From NCBI GenBank assembly GCA_964016885.1, contig OZ024754.1, forward strand, positions 30,070,001-30,134,000: 64,000 nt of DNA, written 5' to 3'. The notes under the pieces were generated by a model. That model was not told the origin of the DNA, searched no databases, and saw only the letters and a list, made by a program, of their open reading frames with translations. This DNA is from Eledone cirrhosa (lineage: Eukaryota). Below are positions 8,946-62,211 of the stretch, in pieces. The translations under genes and the position numbers were made by a program. Position 1 is the stretch's first letter. The number at the start of each line of letters is the position of its first letter.

Positions 8946-9011
8946 TATTTTATCTGATGAAAGCGCACCATAGTTTGCTCTGGTGGCCCTTGAAATATGT
9001 ATAATGAAATA
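8946..9011 (+). ncRNA. type I hammerhead ribozyme, PLE pLTR family X
   Basis: TATTTTAT-CTGATGA-stem II (AAG..CACCA/TGGTG..CTT)-GAAA-TATGTA-TA-ATGAAATA; homologues at 51953 and 60585; abuts (TA)n. Confidence 0.8.
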
Positions 9012-14370: not shown

Positions 14371-14465
14371 ATAGGAAAAGTATGACCCCGACGGCAGAGC
14401 TCAAGTCGTTTCGACGGCCGTTTCGTCGAAACGGCTTGAGCTCTGCCGTCGGGGTCATACTTTTT

Positions 14466-14700: not shown

Positions 14701-14821
14701 ACGAAGGAAATGTGGTAAGGAACCAGGTGGACCATAACGCACCAAAGTACTCAATACTTGGGGTAGTAGAGTGGGTAATAGGAACCAGTAAGACCCCATA
14801 CTTTGGGGTCTTACTGGTTCC

Positions 14822-14824
<3 letters not shown>
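14699..14824 (-). mobile_element. family Z 3' fragment with terminal fold-back
   Basis: Matches 17242-17340; hairpin TAGGAACCAGTAAGACCCC-ATACTTT-GGGGTCTTACTGGTTCCTA; (TA)n on both sides. Confidence 0.85.
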
Positions 14825-16944: not shown

Positions 16945-16948
<4 letters not shown>

Positions 16949-17337
16949 AAAAAGTATGACCCCGACGGCAGAGCTCAAGCCGTTTCGACGGCTATTTCTG
17001 GACTAACTTAGAATTTTTAGCCTGGTGAATAAATAGCCGAACTTGTCAAGGGGGTACTTCCTTATATGGGAAGATTGTAGTTGTCAAGAAGATTGGTTAA
17101 AATTTTAACCAATCTTCTTGACAACTACAATCTTCCCATATAAGGAAGTACCTCCTTGACAAGTTCGGCTATTTATTCACCAGGCTAAACATTCTAAGTT
17201 AGTCCAGAAATAGCCGTCGAAACGGCTTGAGATCTGCCGTCGTGGTCATACTTTTTCCTATTTCCCACTCTACTACCCTAAGTATTGAGTCATCGGGTGC
17301 GCTATGGTCCATCTGGTTCCTTACCACAATTCCTTTG

Positions 17338-17377: not shown

Positions 17378-17651
17378 TGAGATAGTAAACAAAAAACAAA
17401 AAAAAACAACGTGGAAGCGAAGAGGCAGTACAAAATGTTAATATTAGTTTCACGCTTGTATATATGTATATATATATATATATATATAAAACAGTAAAGA
17501 GAAACGAACACAGATATATAACTATATGTGTTCAAATCAGAAGGTACAGAAACCGCCAGGGTGAAGAAAATACTGACTAAAATTGTATGGTTCACAGAAC
17601 TCAATTAAAAGGATAAATCGAGATATATAAACCTGGTATGATAACTATCAA

Positions 17652-17730
17652 ATATCCAGACAGCTTACGAGTAGAACTGTTTCGCAATTCAGTAAACAGA
17701 TTAACTGGTCCGATGCTTTTCAATGGCTAC
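17652..17730 (-). ncRNA. hammerhead ribozyme with U3-A8 variant core and GUC site
   Basis: GTAGCCA-TTGAAAA-GCATCGG..CTGAATTGC-GAAA-CAGTT..AGCTG-TC-TGGATAT. Confidence 0.65.
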
Positions 17731-18023
17731 TTCACAACCAGTATACCCCCCCCCCCACTACGCACATGTGTTAATAGAGAAAGCACATAGTTATCGCCTG
17801 CCAGGCGATCGAATAGAAGAGTAAGGTTACCAGAAAAAATAGCAGCCACACCATCTGATATATTAAAAGCTCAACCAAAGCATAGGAGTTCAATTTATCC
17901 AAAATATATGTTGAGTTAAAAACTCACAATAATAATTATAATCAAATTAGCTCAAGGAAAAATAATTTCAAAGTCTAATTTGAACGCATATAGTTATATA
18001 TCTGTGTTCGTCTCTCTTTACTG

Positions 18024-18096
<73 letters not shown>

Positions 18097-18488: not shown

Positions 18489-18534
18489 TGCTCTGATGAG
18501 TCCCACTTATAGTGCGGATGAAACAATGTTAGCA
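18489..18534 (+). ncRNA. minimal type I hammerhead ribozyme
   Basis: TGCT-CTGATGA-GTCCCACT/AGTGCGGAT-GAAA-CAATG-TT-AGCA, about 40 nt upstream of (TA)n. Confidence 0.8.
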
Positions 18535-18574
18535 AGTAAATATATGCATATGCCATAGGCGTTCTTTGTTATTG

Positions 18575-21345: not shown

Positions 21346-21382
21346 TAATATAAGATCAAAAGATGGTTAAAGGAGTTCCATG

Positions 21383-21453
21383 TATTTTATTATGCGCATT
21401 TCAAAAACAAACATCATCATGCAATAATATTTGTGTTTTCATCAGATAAAACA
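21383..21453 (-). ncRNA. minimal type I hammerhead ribozyme
   Basis: Reverse complement of 21572-21642. Confidence 0.75.
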
Positions 21454-21571
21454 GGAGAACATGATATGAAGGCTAAAAAACACTTGTGGATAGTGCAGTT
21501 TTAAATCAACATATGTTGATTTAAAACTACACTATCCACAAGTGTTTTTTAGCCTTCATATCATGTTCTCC

Positions 21572-21642
21572 TGTTTTATCTGATGAAAACACAAATATTA
21601 TTGCATGATGATTTTTGTTTTTGAAATGCGCATAATAAAATA
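21572..21642 (+). ncRNA. minimal type I hammerhead ribozyme
   Basis: TGTTTTAT-CTGATGA-AAACACAAA..TTTTGTTTTT-GAAA-TGCGCA-TA-ATAAAATA; palindromic stem III. Confidence 0.75.
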
Positions 21643-21826
21643 CATGGAACTCCTTTAACCATTTTTTGATCTTATATTATGTATACTTCAGTCCTACAAA
21701 CTGTAGAGTGCTTCTTATCCGATATCTGCATTGCTTTATTGTACTACAATAAAACTCACCTCCTACATATATACATATATACATAGATATACACTCTCAC
21801 ACAGGCACAGATATAAATATATCTGT

Positions 21827-24573: not shown

Positions 24574-24629
24574 ACTGCCTGATGAGGTCATAGCCATTCA
24601 ATGGCTATCATCGAAATATATATAGCAGT
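24574..24629 (+). ncRNA. minimal type I hammerhead ribozyme
   Basis: ACTGC-CTGATGA-GGT.TAGCCAT/ATGGCTA.ATC-GAAA-TATATA-TA-GCAGT; island bounded by (TA)n with a small inverted stub at its 5' end. Confidence 0.85.
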
Positions 24630-33680: not shown

Positions 33681-34165
33681 TCTTACGTCTAAATAATTAT
33701 TTGTAATGTGGCATTCCCAGATTCTATCACGATATCCTACTTAGTAATTATACTAAAGTCATTTCATTTTATAGCTATTTCCTCGTTTAACTTGCGCTAT
33801 TTAAATTTACAGTTTTACTTGTGAAAGCATCCAACTTAACTTAATTGACAAATAAATGTTGAAATATAATGTGGATCAATATCAAATGTAAGACTGAATA
33901 AACAAATTAAAATAATCACAAAACCCTTTTATTTCATTTTAAACAGATGTGGCTTAAACAACAAATGTATGTGTTGGAGATTTTAGATATATTATACACT
34001 ATCATAGTATAATTCTAAAGTATCTTGCGGTTTTAGGCGAGGGTATTGGAATGATAAGAGATAAGGGTTAACTGATAAGATGTATAGGTTAACTAACAGG
34101 ATCTATAGGTTAACTGAGATATTACAAGAGTGTTTACTGGAGTAGACAGTTGTTTTTTATACATA

Positions 34166-35034
34166 CGAGGTGGGTCAGAAAAGTTCCAGGACTGATGTCA
34201 CAAACGATTTATTTCAAACCCAAACTTCACACTAAGAGTTTTCTCCATCAAAGTAATCCCCCTTTTCCATCCTTTTCTGCCACGCTTGCATGCACTGCTG
34301 GAAGGATTCTTCCGGGATCCTCCGCAGTTTCGTCGTTACGGCCTTTTTGATGTCGTCCACGTCTTCAAAACGGTCGTACTCGAAGATCCATGACTCATCA
34401 CCGGTGATGACTGTCCCTAGCAAGTCTGGTTCGGTTTCAAGACGCTCGAGGATGTCCTGGCACACTTGCATGCGTCGACTCTTCTGGTCATCGTTCAGCA
34501 GTTTTGGCACCATCTTCGCGCAAACTTTCCGCATGTCCAAATCTTCAGTGAGAATCTTCCAGACGCTGTCCCGATTCATGCCCAGCTCATTTGCCATCAG
34601 TCGAACAGTCAGCCGACGATCGCTACGCACTATTTGCCTGACGCGCTCAACGTTGACCTCAGTCCTGGTTGTTGAGGGACTTTCGCTCCTGGGGTCATCT
34701 TCCACGTCCTCGCGGCCTTCTTTAAACCTCTTGCACCACTCAAAAACACGTGAGCGTGACATCGTCTCATCTCCATACACTTGCTGCAGTAATCCCAGTG
34801 CTTCTGATGGAGTTTTCAAGTTTGTTCGTTGTTCTTTACTCATTGCTTTACTACCTGAAACAGAGCACATGTATATAAAATTATGAAGAAAAAAGTTTGA
34901 TCGCTGCAGAGAGCTAAGATTACAGTTACATACTCCAGGGGGATTACTTTGAAGGAGAAAACTCTTAGTGTGAAATTTGGGTTTGAAATAAATCTTTTGT
35001 GACATCAGTCCTGGAACTTTTCTGACCCACCTCG
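34166..35034 (-). mobile_element. mariner (Tc1/mariner) internal-deletion derivative
   Basis: About 97-bp TIRs beginning CGAGGTGGGTCAGAAAAGTTCCAGGACTG; TA TSD on both sides. Confidence 0.95.
34232..34840 (-). pseudogene. mariner transposase with an in-frame deletion of the catalytic core
   Basis: HTH region (VYGDETMSRSRVFEW..RFKEGREDVEDDPR), CAKMVPKLL, first D motif ITGDESWIFEYD joined directly to RFEDVDDIK..GDYFDG; HDNA and SPDLAP motifs absent. Confidence 0.9.
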
Positions 35035-35685
35035 TATATCTTACGATTAAATAAAAGTGGGACCTAGGAATGAGTATAATCTGTATGTATGTGTGTATTA
35101 TGTATGTATTATGTATGTATGTATGTATTACGTATATATATATAGAGAGAGAGAGAGAAAGCGAGAGAGGTGGGGGTGGGAGAGAAAGCTAAGATAGTGA
35201 AAGAGATGAGAGAGTGAGAGAAAGAGGAGAGAAAGAGGTGAAGGGTCAAAAACCTTTCGGATTGATAAGTCGATTTTAAACGGTGTTAAACTAAGCAAGC
35301 ATGTCATCAAAAACGTGTCATCCATGCCCATCACGTTTTTCTAGGGGAAGGGAGTTACATTACGCAATTTCTCAAGATGGTAGGATGTGGATTGGGCAAG
35401 ATTTTGCTGCTGTTTCTAGCATGTTGAGTGACTATACTAAGGCATCCTGGAGGGCTCGTTTTCATAGAATAAAAAAAAAACCAAGTATGAACTTAGAACC
35501 AGAAACTAAATATTGGTTTCTAATTTAGACAAAAAGCCTCCAATTTTGGAGAGAGGAAGGGGTAGATTAAATCGAGTCCAGTACTTAATTGATACTTTAT
35601 TTCATGGATCCCAAAAAGGGGAAAAGAAGAGTTGACCTTTACAAGATTTGAATTTCGGCAGCAGAGAGCCGGTAATAAGAAAATC

Positions 35686-36805: not shown

Positions 36806-37059
36806 GATTATGTATAGTGATAGATTAACAGTAATCGATAGAGCATCTAACAAAATGCTTTGTGTTATTTAGGTACAACTCTCTACGTTCTGAGTTCAAA
36901 TCCCGCCGAATTCAAGTCTGCCTTTTATCCTTCTAGGAATAATAGAATAAAGTACCAGTTTAGTACTGGCGTGGATATAATCGACTTTCCCTTTCCCCAA
37001 ATTACTGGTCTTGGGCTAACGTTAGAAAGAATTATATATATAAATATATATATATAAAT

Positions 37060-37093
<34 letters not shown>

Positions 37094-37280
37094 TTCGTTT
37101 CTGAATTTGTTTAGCAAGATTCTTTATCTGAAAACGTGTGTTGAAACCGATATTGTTATACTTTGGGAGGGTCATGTTGCCAATAAGAAACACACGCACC
37201 AGTTGCTTTCACTTCAATTTATTATAAATTTCCGATTGGTTGGTTGGTTGGTTCCACAACCGGATAGTTGTTCATATATT

Positions 37281-37323
37281 GTCAAAGTTCTTTCGTCACA
37301 CATTCTGTGACCTCTTCAGTGAC
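37281..37323 (-). ncRNA. minimal type I hammerhead ribozyme of the PLE pLTR (family P)
   Basis: GTCA-CTGAAGA-gGTCACA/TGTGAC-GAAA-GAAC-TT-TGAC. Confidence 0.8.
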
Positions 37324-37519
37324 TGGGGATTCTTTTCTTTGTTTTGTGCCTCTCCTTTGTTCCGTCCTACGCCATCTTGTTTTTGTGTGTGTTGTGTGCT
37401 TAGTTTGCGCATGTGTTACATCCGGGTGTCTGTGTGTGTTTTTATTTGTTTATTTATTTGTTTATATACATGTTACTAGTTAGTTGTTTGTTCTATATGT
37501 GTATGTTTTCATTTTGTCT

Positions 37520-38215
37520 TTAATTGTAAGTTGTTATGTTGCTATTCCATTCATATTTTCTATTTAATTTTGGTTGGAGTTCATTTATGTTTATTGCCTC
37601 TGTGATTTGTCTAAACATTGTGTCTTTTCTGTGTGTAGGTTTAATTTTTATTTCTATGTTCTCTAATTTGCCCTTATGTTCTATTATGTTCTATTTTAGC
37701 ATGTTGGTGGAGTACTGATGAGTCTTTTCTATCTTGGAGTTCTCATCAGTGTTCATTTAATCGTTCTCCTATACTACGAGCTGTCTCACCTATGTACATT
37801 ATATTCTTATCTTTACATTGTTCCTCAGTACATCTTATTCTATATACTATATTTCTAGTTTTACAGTTAATATGGGGGCTTAGTTTATAGATTATGCATT
37901 TCTTATCTATACAGGGAGGTCTTTGAAAAGGGTATGTATTGCTAATAAGTGTTTTTATGGAGGTACCTGGTCTTTCCACTATCTTAATATTTAGTTTAAG
38001 TTTATCTAGGGCCCTTCTAAATTTGTAAGCTAGTTCACCTCTAGGGGTTGTATTGATGAACATTACATTCTGGTATTTATTGCTATCATACCATGAGTTT
38101 ATTTTATTTACCTTATTCCTAGTTCTTTCTATTCTATTCAAAAATTTGCCCCTATACAAGGGGCAGGTCCCATTTTTATCATTATTTACCATTTTTTCCC
38201 ATTTGGTTCTGGTTC
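37520..38215 (-). pseudogene. PLE GIY-YIG endonuclease domain
   Basis: NCKTRNIVYRIRC...MYIGETARSIGERLNEH, then after two stops SSVLHQHAKIEH, then after a 10-bp duplication frameshift RQITEAINI..PKLNRKYEW. Confidence 0.9.
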
Positions 38216-38632
38216 CTCTATAAGGGCAATGGATTGGTAGTATCAGTAGAGCGTTCTGAGTTCAAATCCAGCCGAGGTTAGCTTTAACTTTTATTCTACT
38301 GGATTCGATAATATAAAGTAATTGCTATTAACTGGGATTAATATAATAGACTTATTCCTCTACATCTAATTGCTGGCCTGGCCTTATATGGAAATTAAAA
38401 ATCATTATATAAGTATTTTTTCCAAAATCATTATATTATATTCTATTATATTATACAAGACAATACCAACAAGCTGGAGCATGGGTTAGCCATGTGGGCC
38501 GCATGAAAAGCTTCATACTTATTATGGAGTACCTTTTTATGTAATATTTTCCAGCCAGATCTTCTTCCTAATAGGAACCCATTTAGTCGCCTCCACAACA
38601 CGCAGAGATACGTTGTACGTATTCTAAACCGG

Positions 38633-43802: not shown

Positions 43803-44037
43803 ATATATGAAACAGAGGTTGAAAATGCAATTGGAGTCTTTAAGGAGGTTTGTTTAAAATAACTTTACCGGTTTCAGTTTTATGATTATTTAAAGTTAAG
43901 TGAGACGGAGAGATGTGTGATCACACATCTTTCCATCCCTCGTAACTTTTGAAAATCATAAAACTGAAACCGGTAAGGTTATCCTAAATAAATCTTCTTA
44001 AAGACTCCTGTTACATTTTCAACTTCTTTTTCCTATA
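43803..44037. mobile_element. old fold-back with a decayed U3-A8 HHR-like motif (43943-43981, +)
   Basis: Centre GATGTGTGA|TCACACATC with diverged arms; TAACTT-TTGAAAA..GAAA-CCGG-TA-AGGTTA, but stem II is poor. Confidence 0.6.
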
Positions 44038-52918: not shown

Positions 52919-53062
52919 TCCGTGGAAAAGATAAAGGAAAGAAGAGTGCTCTATGTTTAGTACAGAGCTATTTAATTATGTAATAAACAACACAATATAA
53001 TTATTCCATAGAATCGTCTAATTTGGTGAAATTATATTGTGTCGTTTATTTCATAATTAAAT

Positions 53063-53102
<40 letters not shown>

Positions 53103-53107
<5 letters not shown>

Positions 53108-53306
53108 AACGAGTAGGACCCCGACGGCTGAGCTCAAGCCGTTTCGACGGCTGATTCTGGACTAAATTTAGTCCAGAATTAGCCGTCGAAACGGCTTGAG
53201 CTCAGCCGTCGGGGTCCTACTCGTTCCTATTACCCACTCTACTACCCTAAGTATTGAGTACTTTGGTGCGTTATGGTCCACCTGGTTCCTTACCACATTT
53301 CTCCCG

Positions 53307-53310: not shown

Positions 53311-53342
<32 letters not shown>

Positions 53343-53344
<2 letters not shown>

Positions 53345-53925
53345 AATGAATAATAACAGGTAGACATCATAAAAAGGTAATTTATTCCGTGTGCTTACAA
53401 ATGTTTCCACGGTGGTACTACAGCCTAGTTATGCTATGTGCAAATGTGCAAATTTACAAGTATTTGCAGAACCAATGCCTTTGGCCTACCTCCCTCTCCA
53501 CATCTATGAACCTGCCCTCTGGGGCAATAAATAATTCCGACCTTAACTATCAACGCATCTCTCCAAAAGTAACCAGTATAATAAAACCCCTACCATAACA
53601 TTTTGATTAAGATATCTACAAACCACTCTCTCCTACTTCTCCAACCCCTTCATATCTTTCTCTCTCTCTCCCTCTCCCCTACTTTTCTCTCTTCCTTTTC
53701 TACTCTATCTTCCCCAACAACCCCACTTAAGGGTATTTACATTGTACATTTTACCATTCTGCTCTGAGGATACAGTGGTCACAGCATTGGATATTTGAGT
53801 TCTGCAAATACTTGTAAATTTGCACATAGCATAACTAGGCTGTAGTACCACCGTGGAAACATTTGTAAGCACACGGAATAAATTACCTTTTTATGATGTC
53901 TACCTGTTATTATTCATCCTTTATA
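53343..53925 (+). mobile_element. PLE-like 3' end with inverted 5' pLTR stub
   Basis: 53343-53472 is the reverse complement of 53798-53925. Confidence 0.8.
53760..53871 (+). ncRNA. hammerhead ribozyme with ~85-nt stem II domain
   Basis: TGCT-CTGAGGA-TACAGTGGT.ACAGC...GCTGT.ACCACCGTG-GAAA-CATTTG-TA-AGCA. Confidence 0.7.
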
Positions 53926-54377: not shown

Positions 54378-55144
54378 GTGGCTAAACACTGTCGTCTAGC
54401 ATGCGTGCTTCGTTTCCCGTCAGCATGCTGTCAACTTCAAAGTCTTCGGTGATGTTCATCCGGCTTATTCTACCTACATATATATATATATTTTAATCAG
54501 CTCTGTGGCGGCTTCCCAAAGCAGCAAGCCAAATGAAGGTGGGAGTAGATTCTTCAGTTGAATCAAAAGCAAGACAACTTCAGCTGGCCCCCGTTACGTC
54601 TGAGACATCACTTTCTCCTACTAATTAATGACATTGTCTGTGATGAGTAATGTAACCATTGTTCGCTGTACATATATATATGAAATATATATATATGTGA
54701 AATAGTCTTGTACATATATATATATGAAATATATATACGTGAAATAGTCTTTTTAAGACTATATAGAGCATTTGTAGTTTTTCCAAATTGAAGGGTGAGT
54801 ATTTAAACTTTATTTTATTCTGAGTTAAAACTCTATTGGTTTTTCCCCTGGATTTCACAAAATCTGTGGATAAAATCTCTGTCTTGATTTTTTTTTAATT
54901 GAGTTTGAATTATTTTCCCATATCTTACGTCAAATATTTTCCATTTTGACGTTATAGTCACTTATATATAATCAAATACTGTTGGCTTCTTGCTCACATT
55001 AATTTCTCTACTTTCATTTATATATATATATATATATATATACATTGAGTTGAGACTGTGTTTCGTACGCCTTCGTATGTCTTTGTCCATACTTTTTATT
55101 TGAAAAAGTTTATTAGTTTAACGCTTGAAATAGAAGGAAAAGAG

Positions 55145-55180
55145 TCTTAACGTTTCGGACACTAGTTCTTCATCAGAAGA
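55145..55180 (-). ncRNA. minimal hammerhead ribozyme
   Basis: TCTT-CTGATGA-agaactagtgtcc-GAAA-CG-TT-AAGA; stem II imperfect. Confidence 0.6.
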
Positions 55181-55470
55181 TAGAGTTAGAAATAGAAGAT
55201 AAATAGAGAGATAATGGGTGAGAAGAGTAAAGGACGGAGAAAAATGACAAAATCGGGGATATATGTATATATCCAAGGAGTGTAACGTGGAGTTACTGTA
55301 GGTTCACCCGGATGAGCACTCGGTGTTTAGGTTCACTTCAGTGTCAAGGTGTAGAGTTAGACAGAGTTGTATTATAGAATTTTACTATATGTATATATAT
55401 ATATATACTGTACATATATATATATCACATAAGAAACGGAGAATCAGTGTTGCGACGAATAAAATGTATT

Positions 55471-55567
55471 AGACATATTACAATCGTTTCTCTGGCGACC
55501 AGCTTGAGGCACGATCGATGTAATGATCGAACCGGACTCTGAAATCGCAAGGTCCTCAGATACGTCT
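55471..55567 (-). ncRNA. hammerhead ribozyme with extended stem II
   Basis: 8-bp stem I AGACGTAT/ATATGTCT; CTGAGGA; GCGATT/GGTCGC stem II; GAAA-CGATTG-TA. Confidence 0.75.
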
Positions 55568-55597
55568 CGATTCTACGACGCAAAATTTCTAATATAA

Positions 55598-55680
<83 letters not shown>

Positions 55681-55683
<3 letters not shown>

Positions 55684-55884
55684 CGAAGGATGTGGTAAGG
55701 AACTAGATGGACAATAACGCACCAGAGTACTCAATACTTAGGGTAGTAGAGTGGGTAATAGGAAAATGTTTGACCACGACGGCAGAGCTCAAGCCGTTTT
55801 GACGGCTATTTCTGGATTAAATAGAGTCCAGAAATAGCCGTCGAAACGGCTTGAACTCTGCCGTCGGGGTCAAACATTTTCCTA
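55681..55884. mobile_element. family Z tail plus fold-back in (TA)n
   Basis: Arms 55758-55817 and 55826-55884. Confidence 0.88.
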
Positions 55885-56048
55885 TATATATATATATGTG
55901 TGTGTGTATGAGTGTGTGTGTCTATATATATGTGTGTGTGTGTCTGTGTGTATATATATATATATATATATATTCCCCGTTTTTCTCATTTTTCTCCGTC
56001 CTTTCCTCTTCTCATCCATTATCTATCTATCTTCTATTTCTAACTCTA

Positions 56049-56084
56049 TCTTCTGATGAAGAACTAGTGACCGAAACGTTAAGA
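56049..56084 (+). ncRNA. minimal hammerhead ribozyme (mirror of 55145)
   Basis: Core intact; stem II degenerate. Confidence 0.5.
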
Positions 56085-56329
56085 CGCTTTTCCTGCTATT
56101 TCAAGCGTTAAACTAATAAACTTTTTCAAATAAAAAGTATGGACAAAGACAAGAGGAAGACGTACGAAACACAGTCTCAACTCATCAATCGATATGAGTG
56201 AGTGTGTGTGTTTGAGTATATGTGTGTGTGAGTGTGTGTGTGTGTATGCGCGTGTGTCTGTCTGTGTATGTGTATGGATGTGTGTTTGTATGTAGGTAGG
56301 TAGGTATTCATGTGTATGTGTATGTATAT

Positions 56330-56810: not shown

Positions 56811-56865
56811 CATATATATATATACATATTTGTTTTGCAAGGTTTTTGATATAACAATATATATA

Positions 56866-57287
56866 TATTGTTATACTTTGGGAGGGTCATGTTGCCAATA
56901 AGAAACACGCGCACCAGTTGCTTTCACTCCAATTTATTATAAATTAAATTTATAAATTTAAGAATTTATAAATTTCCGGTTGATAGGTTCCACAACCGGG
57001 CGGTTGTTCATATATAGTCAAAGTTCTTTCGTCACAGATTCTGTAACCTCTTCTGGGGATTATTTTTTTTGTTTTGTGCCTCTCCGGAAATTTATAAATT
57101 CTTAAATTTATAAATTCTTAAATTTATAAATTCTTAAATTTATAAATTTAATTTATAATAAATTGGAGTGAAAGCAACTGGTGCGTGTGTTTCTTATTGG
57201 CAACATGGCTCTCCCAAAGTATAAAAATATCGGTTTCAGCACACGTTTTCAGATAAAGAATCTTGCTAAACAAATTCAGAAACGAAA
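56866..57287. mobile_element. fold-back derivative of PLE family P pLTR
   Basis: Matches 37093-37352 in both orientations; HHR copy broken by a small deletion near 57053. Confidence 0.88.
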
Positions 57288-57598
57288 TATATATCTACAT
57301 ATATGCAAACATATATATATGTGTGTGTGTGTGTATGATATATATGAATGTATTCATATGTATCTGTGAGAATGTCTGAATGTATGCATGTGTATGTGTA
57401 GCAGGATTTACCATTAACAAATGATATAGTAGAATAAAATATAATAATTAATGAAGACCATTAATTATTGCTGAAATATATATAATTGTTTCTAATTTAA
57501 TGGTATTTTATCTTTCTCAATTAACAGTCAATTTATCAAAAATATAGTTGTGTATAATATATGAGTCTGTGTGTTTTTGTCAGTGTGTGGAGGGGGCG

Positions 57599-58819: not shown

Positions 58820-59188
58820 GTAAATATCTTTAAGTCGTTTGGAAGCCCCGACAATGCAAATGGGTAAATCTCCGGGTAACAAGATCTGGTGGTGGAGAGA
58901 AGGATGTAAGTGGGTGTACGTTGAGATGCGTGGTGTGTATGAGATGTGTAGAAGAATGAAGGAAAGAGTAAAAGGGATAAAATAAAAATAACAACACGAG
59001 AGAGAGTTACCTTGGGAGAGATTTATTTTATCCTTTATACTCTTTCCTTCATTCTTCTACACATCTCATACACACCACGCAACTCAACGTACACCCACTT
59101 ACATCCCTCTCTCCACCACCAGATCTTGTTACCCGGAGATTTACCCATTTTCATTGTCGAGGCTTCCAAATGACTTAAAGATATTTAC
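58820..59188. mobile_element. fold-back element with ~165-bp arms next to (TA)n
   Basis: 58820-58986 is the reverse complement of 59022-59188. Confidence 0.88.
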
Positions 59189-59726: not shown

Positions 59727-59787
59727 TCCTTAGTCAGTGTTGAACAAAAGGGCAACGATGGTTGCCGAACACTGTACGGCTACTTAT

Positions 59788-60177
59788 ATTTCGTTTCTGA
59801 ATTGAATTTGTTTAGCAAGATTCTTTATCTGAAAACGTGTGTTGAAACCGATATTGTTATACTTTGGGAGGGTCATGTTGCCAATAAGAAACACACGCAC
59901 CAGTTGCTTTCACTTCAATTTATTATAATAAATTTATAAATTTAGGAATTTATAAATTTCCGGTTGGTTGGTTGGTTCCACAACCAGATGGTTGTTTATA
60001 TATTGTCAATTGTTTATATATTGACAATATATAAACAATCAACTGGTTGTGGAACCAACCAACCAACCGGAAATTTATAAATTCTTAAATTTATAAATTT
60101 ATTATAATAAATTGAAGTGAAAGCAACTGGTGCGTGTGTTTCTTATTGGCAACATGACCCTCCCAATGTATAACAAT
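59788..60177. mobile_element. fold-back derivative of PLE family P pLTR
   Basis: Left arm matches 37093-37285; right arm is the inverted copy; (TA)n on the right. Confidence 0.9.
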
Positions 60178-60192
60178 ATATATATATATATA

Positions 60193-60401: not shown

Positions 60402-60836
<435 letters not shown>

Positions 60837-61763: not shown

Positions 61764-61804
61764 AATATATATATATATATTGTTATACTTTGCCAATAAG
61801 AAAC

Positions 61805-61836
<32 letters not shown>

Positions 61837-62132: not shown

Positions 62133-62184
62133 ATATATATATATATTGTTATACTTTGGGAGGGTCATGTTGCCAATAAGAAAC

Positions 62185-62211
<27 letters not shown>

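Follow-up and report, generated by a model that had tools for sequence, protein, structure and literature searches.

The 64-kb stretch of DNA analysed here (the window) very probably holds members of a high-copy Penelope-like element (PLE) family with a C-terminal endonuclease, in which two fold-backs and a stub are dead-on-arrival insertions at TA tracts and the protein joins a Nematis-like endonuclease to an insert in the fingers of the reverse transcriptase (RT). Judged from its sequence, the segment 38222→37093 on the minus strand is a dead, 5′-truncated PLE: the end of an RT thumb, a Cys linker, a C-terminal GIY-YIG domain, a minimal hammerhead and a pLTR end adjoining (TA)n follow one another in that order (Table 1). 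Published work is cited by accession, to the extent of the portions available to us.

Table 1. Coordinates of the remnant, its parts and its recurrences in the window
Feature	Position	Strand	Basis or remark
Thumb end, Cys linker and GIY-YIG core with CCHH	37686..38222	-	tblastn, profile, reads
C-terminal GIY-YIG part with conserved E and N, and stop codon; shifted frame	37520..37687	-	tblastn, 48% to P0005
3′ UTR and pLTR body, containing the hammerhead	37176..37519	-	alignment, reads
Minimal type-I hammerhead motif	37281..37323	-	descriptor scan vs. shuffles; same architecture in L003 and L002
ORF start, from ATG 37175 to the tail-less terminus 37150/37151	37151..37175	-	27-aa peptide match to L003
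Optional 58-bp tail, on one arm only of each fold-back	37093..37150	-	encodes about codons 9-27
(TA)n-rich tract abutting the tail end of the element; likely target	37033..37092		sequence
Fold-back 1	56867..57287		long tail-less arm and short inverted arm with tail
Fold-back 2	59789..60177		arm with tail and inverted tail-less arm
Tail-less end as a stub that lies in (TA)n and lacks 15 nt	61778..61805	-	alignment
43-nt stub, equivalent of 37150-37192, (TA)n on both sides	62144..62185	-	blastn

A truncated element and the start of its reading frame

The GIY-YIG domain that the initial annotation had placed on the minus strand was confirmed by a Pfam match (PF01541, E=0.0018, which falls under the curated cut-off) and by tblastn to relatives, whose matches (E 2e-51) pass from one frame, over 38222-37686, to the next, over 37687-37544. 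The extent first given, 37093..38218, stands except at the 5′ edge, which lies at 38222, inside a TATA of the element. Over the RT-thumb end, linker and GIY-YIG, the remnant is 44-47% identical to longer proteins (6 matches among 121 candidates), and homologues of its protein number 935 representatives at E<=0.001 (best 150 of 935 listed). A profile search found no second PLE ORF in the 64-kb window, which therefore provides no named-clade outgroup. SINE-like repeats flank the remnant at 36861-37034 and 38223-38400, each with at least 14 other matches in the window.

A population view was obtained from 4 of 24 listed sequencing runs, aligned at likeness 85: X1 and X4, which consist of contigs, and X23 and X24, which consist of RAD reads. 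The aligned fractions (21,778 of 17,142,217 X1 contigs and 185,800 of 12,467,656 X23 reads) are not copy numbers; a cut site near 37413 skews the depth of RAD reads, and the depth of contigs does not count copies. None of the aligned contigs spans the whole of the stretch to which they were aligned. The remnant's linker follows the pattern C-x4-C-x2-[C]-x7-C with Tyr at the third Cys position, where 98% of reads carry another letter, and CCHH, with two Cys between GIY and YIG, is present. Its ORF is broken by two adjacent stops (37748-37743), at which 97-99% of RAD reads have other letters, and by a 10-nt tandem duplication (37676-37695), before ending in a stop codon at 37522-37520. Beyond 38222, six X1 contigs run on upstream in frame and match the thumb of homologues.

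The initial annotation was also right in placing a hammerhead in the 3′ region: a strict descriptor found 2 motifs in the window vs. 0 in each of 30 shuffles. In the remnant (core 37319), stem I has 4 bp, stem II 6 bp and loop III 4 nt, with one extra base, and the cut is predicted at 37285^37284. Rfam gave no hammerhead match at gathering score in the window, nor at E<=10 in 37050-37500, and the folding energy is unremarkable (z -1.0), as is the folding z-score of the tail. The architecture is like that of the min-HHR of metazoan PLEs, but without the palindromic loop III that the usual dimer type has (PMC4209133); U at the cleavage position is found in several published PLE hammerheads (PMC4209133 File S2). 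Only the remnant has an intact motif, the core of fold-back 1 being without 6 nt and fold-back 2 and the stubs ending before the core. The second strict-descriptor motif of the window lies at 18489-18535. Cores at 24579 and 26912 are also hammerhead-like, and the one at 24579 ends directly in a TA run.

From the ATG at 37175, 27 codons are open through the tail. How such a pLTR end relates to a whole element can be seen in L003, a metagenome contig that holds the whole unit of a relative, about 3.3 kb long. Its order is N-terminus, telomerase-like RT, Cys linker, GIY-YIG, 3′ UTR, minimal hammerhead, ATG and N-terminus again; since the N-terminus recurs after the hammerhead, the pLTR overlaps the ORF start, as pLTR and tail do in PLEs (PMC3846280). 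The repeat at the termini of L003 is 123 nt long and may be a collapsed tandem; the unit is interrupted by one stop and one frameshift. The score of the 27-aa pLTR peptide against its post-hammerhead N-terminus was reached by 16 of 20000 shuffles; against L001 and P0068 the figures were 185 and 367 of 20000, and summed over the three relatives 1 of 20000. One of 4402 unrelated 27-mers from the window equalled the match score of the peptide. A blastp search with the peptide against all stored proteins gave no significant match, significance being confined to the targeted comparison with post-hammerhead N-termini. In L001 (1755-1835), the copy of a relative goes as far as about ORF codon 24 and closes with a short AT run, close to the equivalent of the tail end in the remnant's family; the hammerhead core of L001 is mutated. 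The metagenome search confirmed 4 of 511 stretches, none of the remnant's family, and none of 124 pattern matches in viral contigs was confirmed.

Fold-backs, stubs and their (TA)n flanks

The recurrence of the remnant's terminus in two fold-backs and in stubs was reproduced by blastn, at 56865-57085(+) / 57150-57289(-), 59787-60009(+) / 60021-60179(-) and 62143-62185, and by alignment for the stub at 61778. The terminal 133 nt of the copies are 96-100% identical. All five recurrences first claimed hold as sequences, but they amount to four insertion events, not five: both flanks are common to the two stubs, which are therefore one insertion, duplicated locally. The statement that these copies lack any coding part is contradicted, as they carry the first 8-27 codons of the ORF.

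In each fold-back one arm ends at 37093 and the other at 37150/1, the tail lying on opposite sides in the two. The long arm of fold-back 1 is the equivalent of 37150-37355 with the hammerhead core deleted, and its arms, which turn at about 37355/37230, meet at a CC/GG microhomology. Fold-back 2 turns at 37285. In all four runs, the depth of the outer bin, which holds the tail, is 0.37-0.52 of that of the next bin, a value that fits a tail on about half of the ends, although an edge effect is possible. An AT-rich insert near 37225 is present in both fold-backs and absent from the remnant, so the fold-backs derive from siblings. The proposal that a PLE mobilised these sequences thus survives for the family, as the source of the two fold-backs and the stub. 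It fails for this copy, which cannot itself mobilise because its RT core is missing, its frame is broken by two adjacent stops and a frameshift, and the AT-rich insert is absent. Extreme truncation of PLE insertions, of the published kind with an inverted copy and a tail, accounts for the fold-backs better than a separate class of element would.

The link between PLE and fold-backs applies to this family and does not extend to the other fold-backs of the window: masking left a list of 21 local inverted pairs, of which only 2 match the element. By our own count, about 15 of the 21 are TA-flanked on one side. A second fold-back family, without similarity to the remnant, occurs at 14376-14464, 14778-14824, 16947-17258, 53106-53227 and 55761-55882, with (TA)n on one side and, in 4 of 5 cases, a common one-sided extension on the other. 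The last of these lies inside an inverted pair of another family (55046-56184) that has a hammerhead-like core at each of 55176(-) and 56053(+). Still other families contribute the TA-flanked fold-backs at 17491-18024, 21347-21678, 43810-44031, 52972-53060, 53342-53921, 58822-59186 and 60546-60832. Hammerhead-like cores at 8954, 21445/21580, 52009 and 60641 suggest that several PLE families share the fold-back behaviour. A Tc1/mariner-type element with terminal inverted repeats of ~100 nt and an internally deleted transposase frame (HTH_48, HTH_32) occupies 34163-35037.

The initial annotation had put all copies beside TA repeats and proposed (TA)n as the target. Six of the seven inspected junctions do abut an alternating TA run of >=6 nt, the exception being the tail end of fold-back 2, which has only TATA; the background for such a run is 8% of all positions and 0.7% of unmasked ones. 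Other copies could be followed through their loose ends. Before 37150, 148 contigs of X1, 186 of X4 and 2667 reads of X24 have loose ends whose consensus is (TA)n (agreement 0.52-0.70); these are consensus lines rather than per-copy flanks, and for the tail-less end only. Among the X23 loose ends listed, none falls at 37150 and 3177 reads are loose before 37104, with mixed flanks (agreement 0.35). RAD molecules ending at 37104 (2336 of 3397 in X23 and 2216 of 3066 in X24) likewise have mixed flanks. What stands of the target proposal is an association with (TA)n, upheld both by the junctions of the window and by the loose ends of other copies. Two further observations were made in the reads: a local duplication of 21-22 nt at 37498-37519, in thousands of them, and a joint that leads back from 37521 to 37104 (74 and 52 reads), which could be a tandem of pLTR-sized units.

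The same junctions bear on whether (TA)n is sought at all, or is instead added or expanded at insertion by slippage on a terminal TA or by telomerase-like addition by the RT. The stub has (TA)n on both sides, and the 5′ break of the remnant lies in a TATA run of the element at the edge of the tract, as expected for microhomology with a TA target. A (TA)n preference has moreover been reported for linker-bearing PLEs (PMC8557442). We therefore consider addition at insertion improbable, even though the element's own two ends finish in TA or ATAT, TATA alone stands at one junction and the 5′ junction of the remnant is without a TA tract.

Routes to a fold-back

Copies of the family end at two fixed points of the ORF start (37093 and 37150/1) beside (TA)n. 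We propose that an RT-endonuclease protein would bind its own tandem transcript at the ORF start, by analogy with PAc, and would nick a TA tract, the cDNA beginning at one of two internal sites; the optional tail would be the stretch between these two start sites. Both target strands would then prime short cDNAs, one per site, and a few paired bases would join them head to head into a fold-back of which one arm has the tail. Single priming would give the 1.1-kb remnant or the 43-nt stub, and the fold-backs would be products of intact siblings, not of this remnant. An inverted 5′-truncated copy, a one-sided tail and a (TA)n bias have been described for PLEs (PMC8557442; PMC3846280), as have a tail lying between two RT start sites and the nicking and extension of both target strands (PMC11167929).

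By analogy with these systems we lean slightly towards two-strand priming followed by joining as the way in which the fold-backs may have formed; snap-back of a single cDNA, with later trimming of one arm, seems rather unlikely. In each fold-back, the two arms look like cDNAs that begin at a terminus and run inward, the pattern expected of priming on both target strands with joining by microhomology. The private variants common to the two arms within each fold-back fit either route.

A role for the ribozyme in setting where copies end or turn is suggested by fold-back 2, which turns <=1 nt from the predicted cut, and by fold-back 1, which, with its core deleted, runs about 70 nt past it. These are two cases only, noticed afterwards, at a spot where a small palindrome gives a snap-back site anyway. 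Among the ends and joints listed there is no pile at 37284/5, and the hammerhead bin is the deepest. PAc with a mutated ribozyme still inserts normally, and none of its RNA reads ends at the cut (PMC11167929). Ends defined by the hammerhead are thus unlikely.

The turn points and the tail sides differ between the two fold-backs, neither of which has an intact hammerhead, and each of the four opposite-strand joints among those listed comes from 1-2 read starts. These features speak against a non-autonomous family that re-amplifies as whole hairpins, in the manner of MITEs or retrozymes, with the PLE protein acting in trans. Such a family might explain why summed X1 contig depth (no copy count) is 3-7x higher at the pLTR end than over the ORF (about 1.87M vs. 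0.27-0.56M). It could also draw on reports that pLTRs alone can drive integration in trans (PMC3846280) and that retrozymes derive from pLTRs (bioRxiv 10.64898/2026.07.22.740005). On balance we judge it very unlikely, and retain dead-on-arrival insertion of PLE ends at TA tracts as the preferred reading.

Position among Penelope-like elements

The RT can be followed in relatives of the remnant. The stored proteins that contain YVDD and more than 330 further residues number 108, and 94 of them have the linker and GIY-YIG downstream. Among the 268 stored proteins, 99 have both RT motifs, and in 98 of these motifs A and B are 126-134 residues apart, the exception being P0215 (90 residues). By hand counts from PMC8557442, the spacing is 59-62 in Neptune, Penelope and Nematis (Fig. 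S1), 83 in one Naiad (Naiad-Amil), 117 in human TERT and 121 in one Chlamys. The closest RT-bearing protein among the retrieved relatives, P0178, is an Octopus vulgaris prediction (54% over 151 aa) with a spacing of 130, and the named proteins of the lineage also include Holothuria leucospilota. Residues of the insert are conserved in 85-99% of 84 aligned sequences. The relatives thus share a conserved RT fingers insert of ~70 residues, which we infer for the remnant's family from proteins at most 54% identical to it. As the stored sample was retrieved by similarity, it shows the coherence of the lineage and not how common it is.

In a model of the L003 RT (pLDDT 94), the insert is confidently placed inside the RT. 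Foldseek ranks 1-4 are telomerases, and a second structural search (VIA) returned TERT at all of ranks 1-10 (Z 17.4, rmsd 3.8, 275 aligned), as expected of any PLE. The insert has the same position as the TERT IFD and a similar length, whole-RT matches being too coarse to resolve the insert itself; folded alone, it gave a pLDDT of 35. To a shared fold with the TERT IFD we assign a low probability. In an Atlas structure search with residues 325-470 of P0178, the alignment covered only 74-88 of 146 residues for 9 of 10 clusters, most of which carry canonical PLE Pfam families, and 116 for the remaining one, which is unannotated. Pfam RVT_1 was detected in 1 of 9 RT-bearing proteins, and not in the L003 or L001 RT; a PDB sequence search gave weak RT matches only. 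In the 2021 classification the IFD marks PLEs with an N-terminal endonuclease, some Coprina, in which IFD-like regions are sporadic, and telomerases, canonical PLEs lacking it (PMC8557442). A search of the open-access literature found no PLE with a C-terminal endonuclease and a fingers insertion this long.

As in EN+ PLEs, GIY-YIG is fused to a telomerase-related RT (in relatives), CCHH is present, a hammerhead-bearing pLTR lies over the ORF start and there is an inverted truncated copy with a one-sided tail. Of the clades suggested at the outset, Naiad is excluded, as the endonuclease here is C-terminal and followed by stop, UTR and hammerhead. The linker is unlike that of Neptune: its CxxC-to-C spacer is 7 residues in 134 of 176 stored proteins (range 5-14, where the pattern allowed 5-40), vs. 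a visibly longer spacer in the Neptune rows of Fig. S2 of PMC8557442, as read from rows that carry no stated definition. Hydra was rejected, CCHH being present and the linker not CxCX5C, and Penelope/Poseidon was rejected on the Cys linker between RT and endonuclease.

A quick tree groups the remnant with P0178 and P0007 (99% SH-aLRT); besides the remnant, its 88 rows comprise proteins that bear the insert and have over 125 aligned residues, and five close ones that do not have both motifs, with no named-clade references. Tentatively, and with only slightly less than even confidence, we assign these proteins to an unnamed clade, widespread in marine invertebrates, of C-terminal-endonuclease PLEs that carry a fingers insert of telomerase length (~70 residues), target (TA)n and fill the host genome with fold-backs. 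Alternatively, the family could simply belong to Nematis, carry a lineage-specific RT insert and already stand, unnamed, in repeat databases, which we find possible but doubtful. A Nematis-type CX2-5CxxC linker with a short spacer is found together with CCHH, the usual spacer of 7 is that of the Nematis rows of Fig. S2, and the C-terminal segment of the endonuclease (E...LN) and the extended RT1-RT2 loop resemble those of Nematis (PMC8557442). The relatives' RT does not share the lack of an insertion between motifs A and B, however, the spacing being about 62 in Nematis by hand count vs. 126-134 here. Also unlike the Nematis rows are the motif B, GG[AP]IG, and the RT1 motif RKDHK of the relatives; RKDHK, GGAIG and GGPIG have 0 occurrences in the supplement text of PMC8557442, which is gapped and whose FASTA covers Naiad, Chlamys and Hydra. 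Thirty-one recently active Penelope-like families are known in O. vulgaris (PMC13282606), and the repeat library of that study may hold the remnant's family already.

Fold-back, tail and (TA)n are already published PLE anatomy; the new part is the clade. For many short TA-flanked hairpins in genomes of this kind, PLE end is the proper annotation, not MITE. Telomerase has the PLE RTs as its sister group, and certain PLE clades have been tied to TERT through the fingers insertion. A broad lineage that combines a C-terminal endonuclease with an insert of TERT length, and that Pfam mostly misses, would add a branch to the PLE classification, and would bear on the origin of the telomerase IFD if the insert shared its fold. 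Natural full-length relatives would allow tests of the insert and the Cys linker in microsatellite targeting, and the sharpness of the two termini, with high copy number, means that a second PLE lineage can be used to test the two-start-site model of the tail.

With canonical C-terminal EN+ PLEs (PMC8557442; PMC3846280), the family shares an RT followed by GIY-YIG with CCHH, a pLTR hammerhead and a pLTR and tail over the ORF start, as well as 5′ truncation, an adjacent inverted copy, a one-sided tail and a microsatellite bias; the tail is 58 bp here vs. the published 30-40. Naiad and Chlamys resemble it in the insert between RT motifs A and B, and Naiads, which are known from octopus, in their (TA)n bias; they differ in that the endonuclease here is C-terminal, the hammerhead is of the canonical minimal kind and the A-B spacing is longer than in Naiad-Amil. 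Hydra elements, which have an octopus member, likewise have a C-terminal endonuclease, a hammerhead, (TA)n insertions and KDHK in RT1, but no IFD, whereas here there are CCHH, another linker and an ORF of about 1050 aa. PAc, the Poseidon of Anolis (PMC11167929), is similar in its two fixed termini within the ORF start that bound the tail, its AT-rich targets and its hammerhead near the start codon. It differs from the present family in that Poseidon is without the Cys linker and in the place of the hammerhead cut, which is predicted here to lie upstream of the ATG, by 109 nt (by 42 nt in L003), and not inside the ORF.
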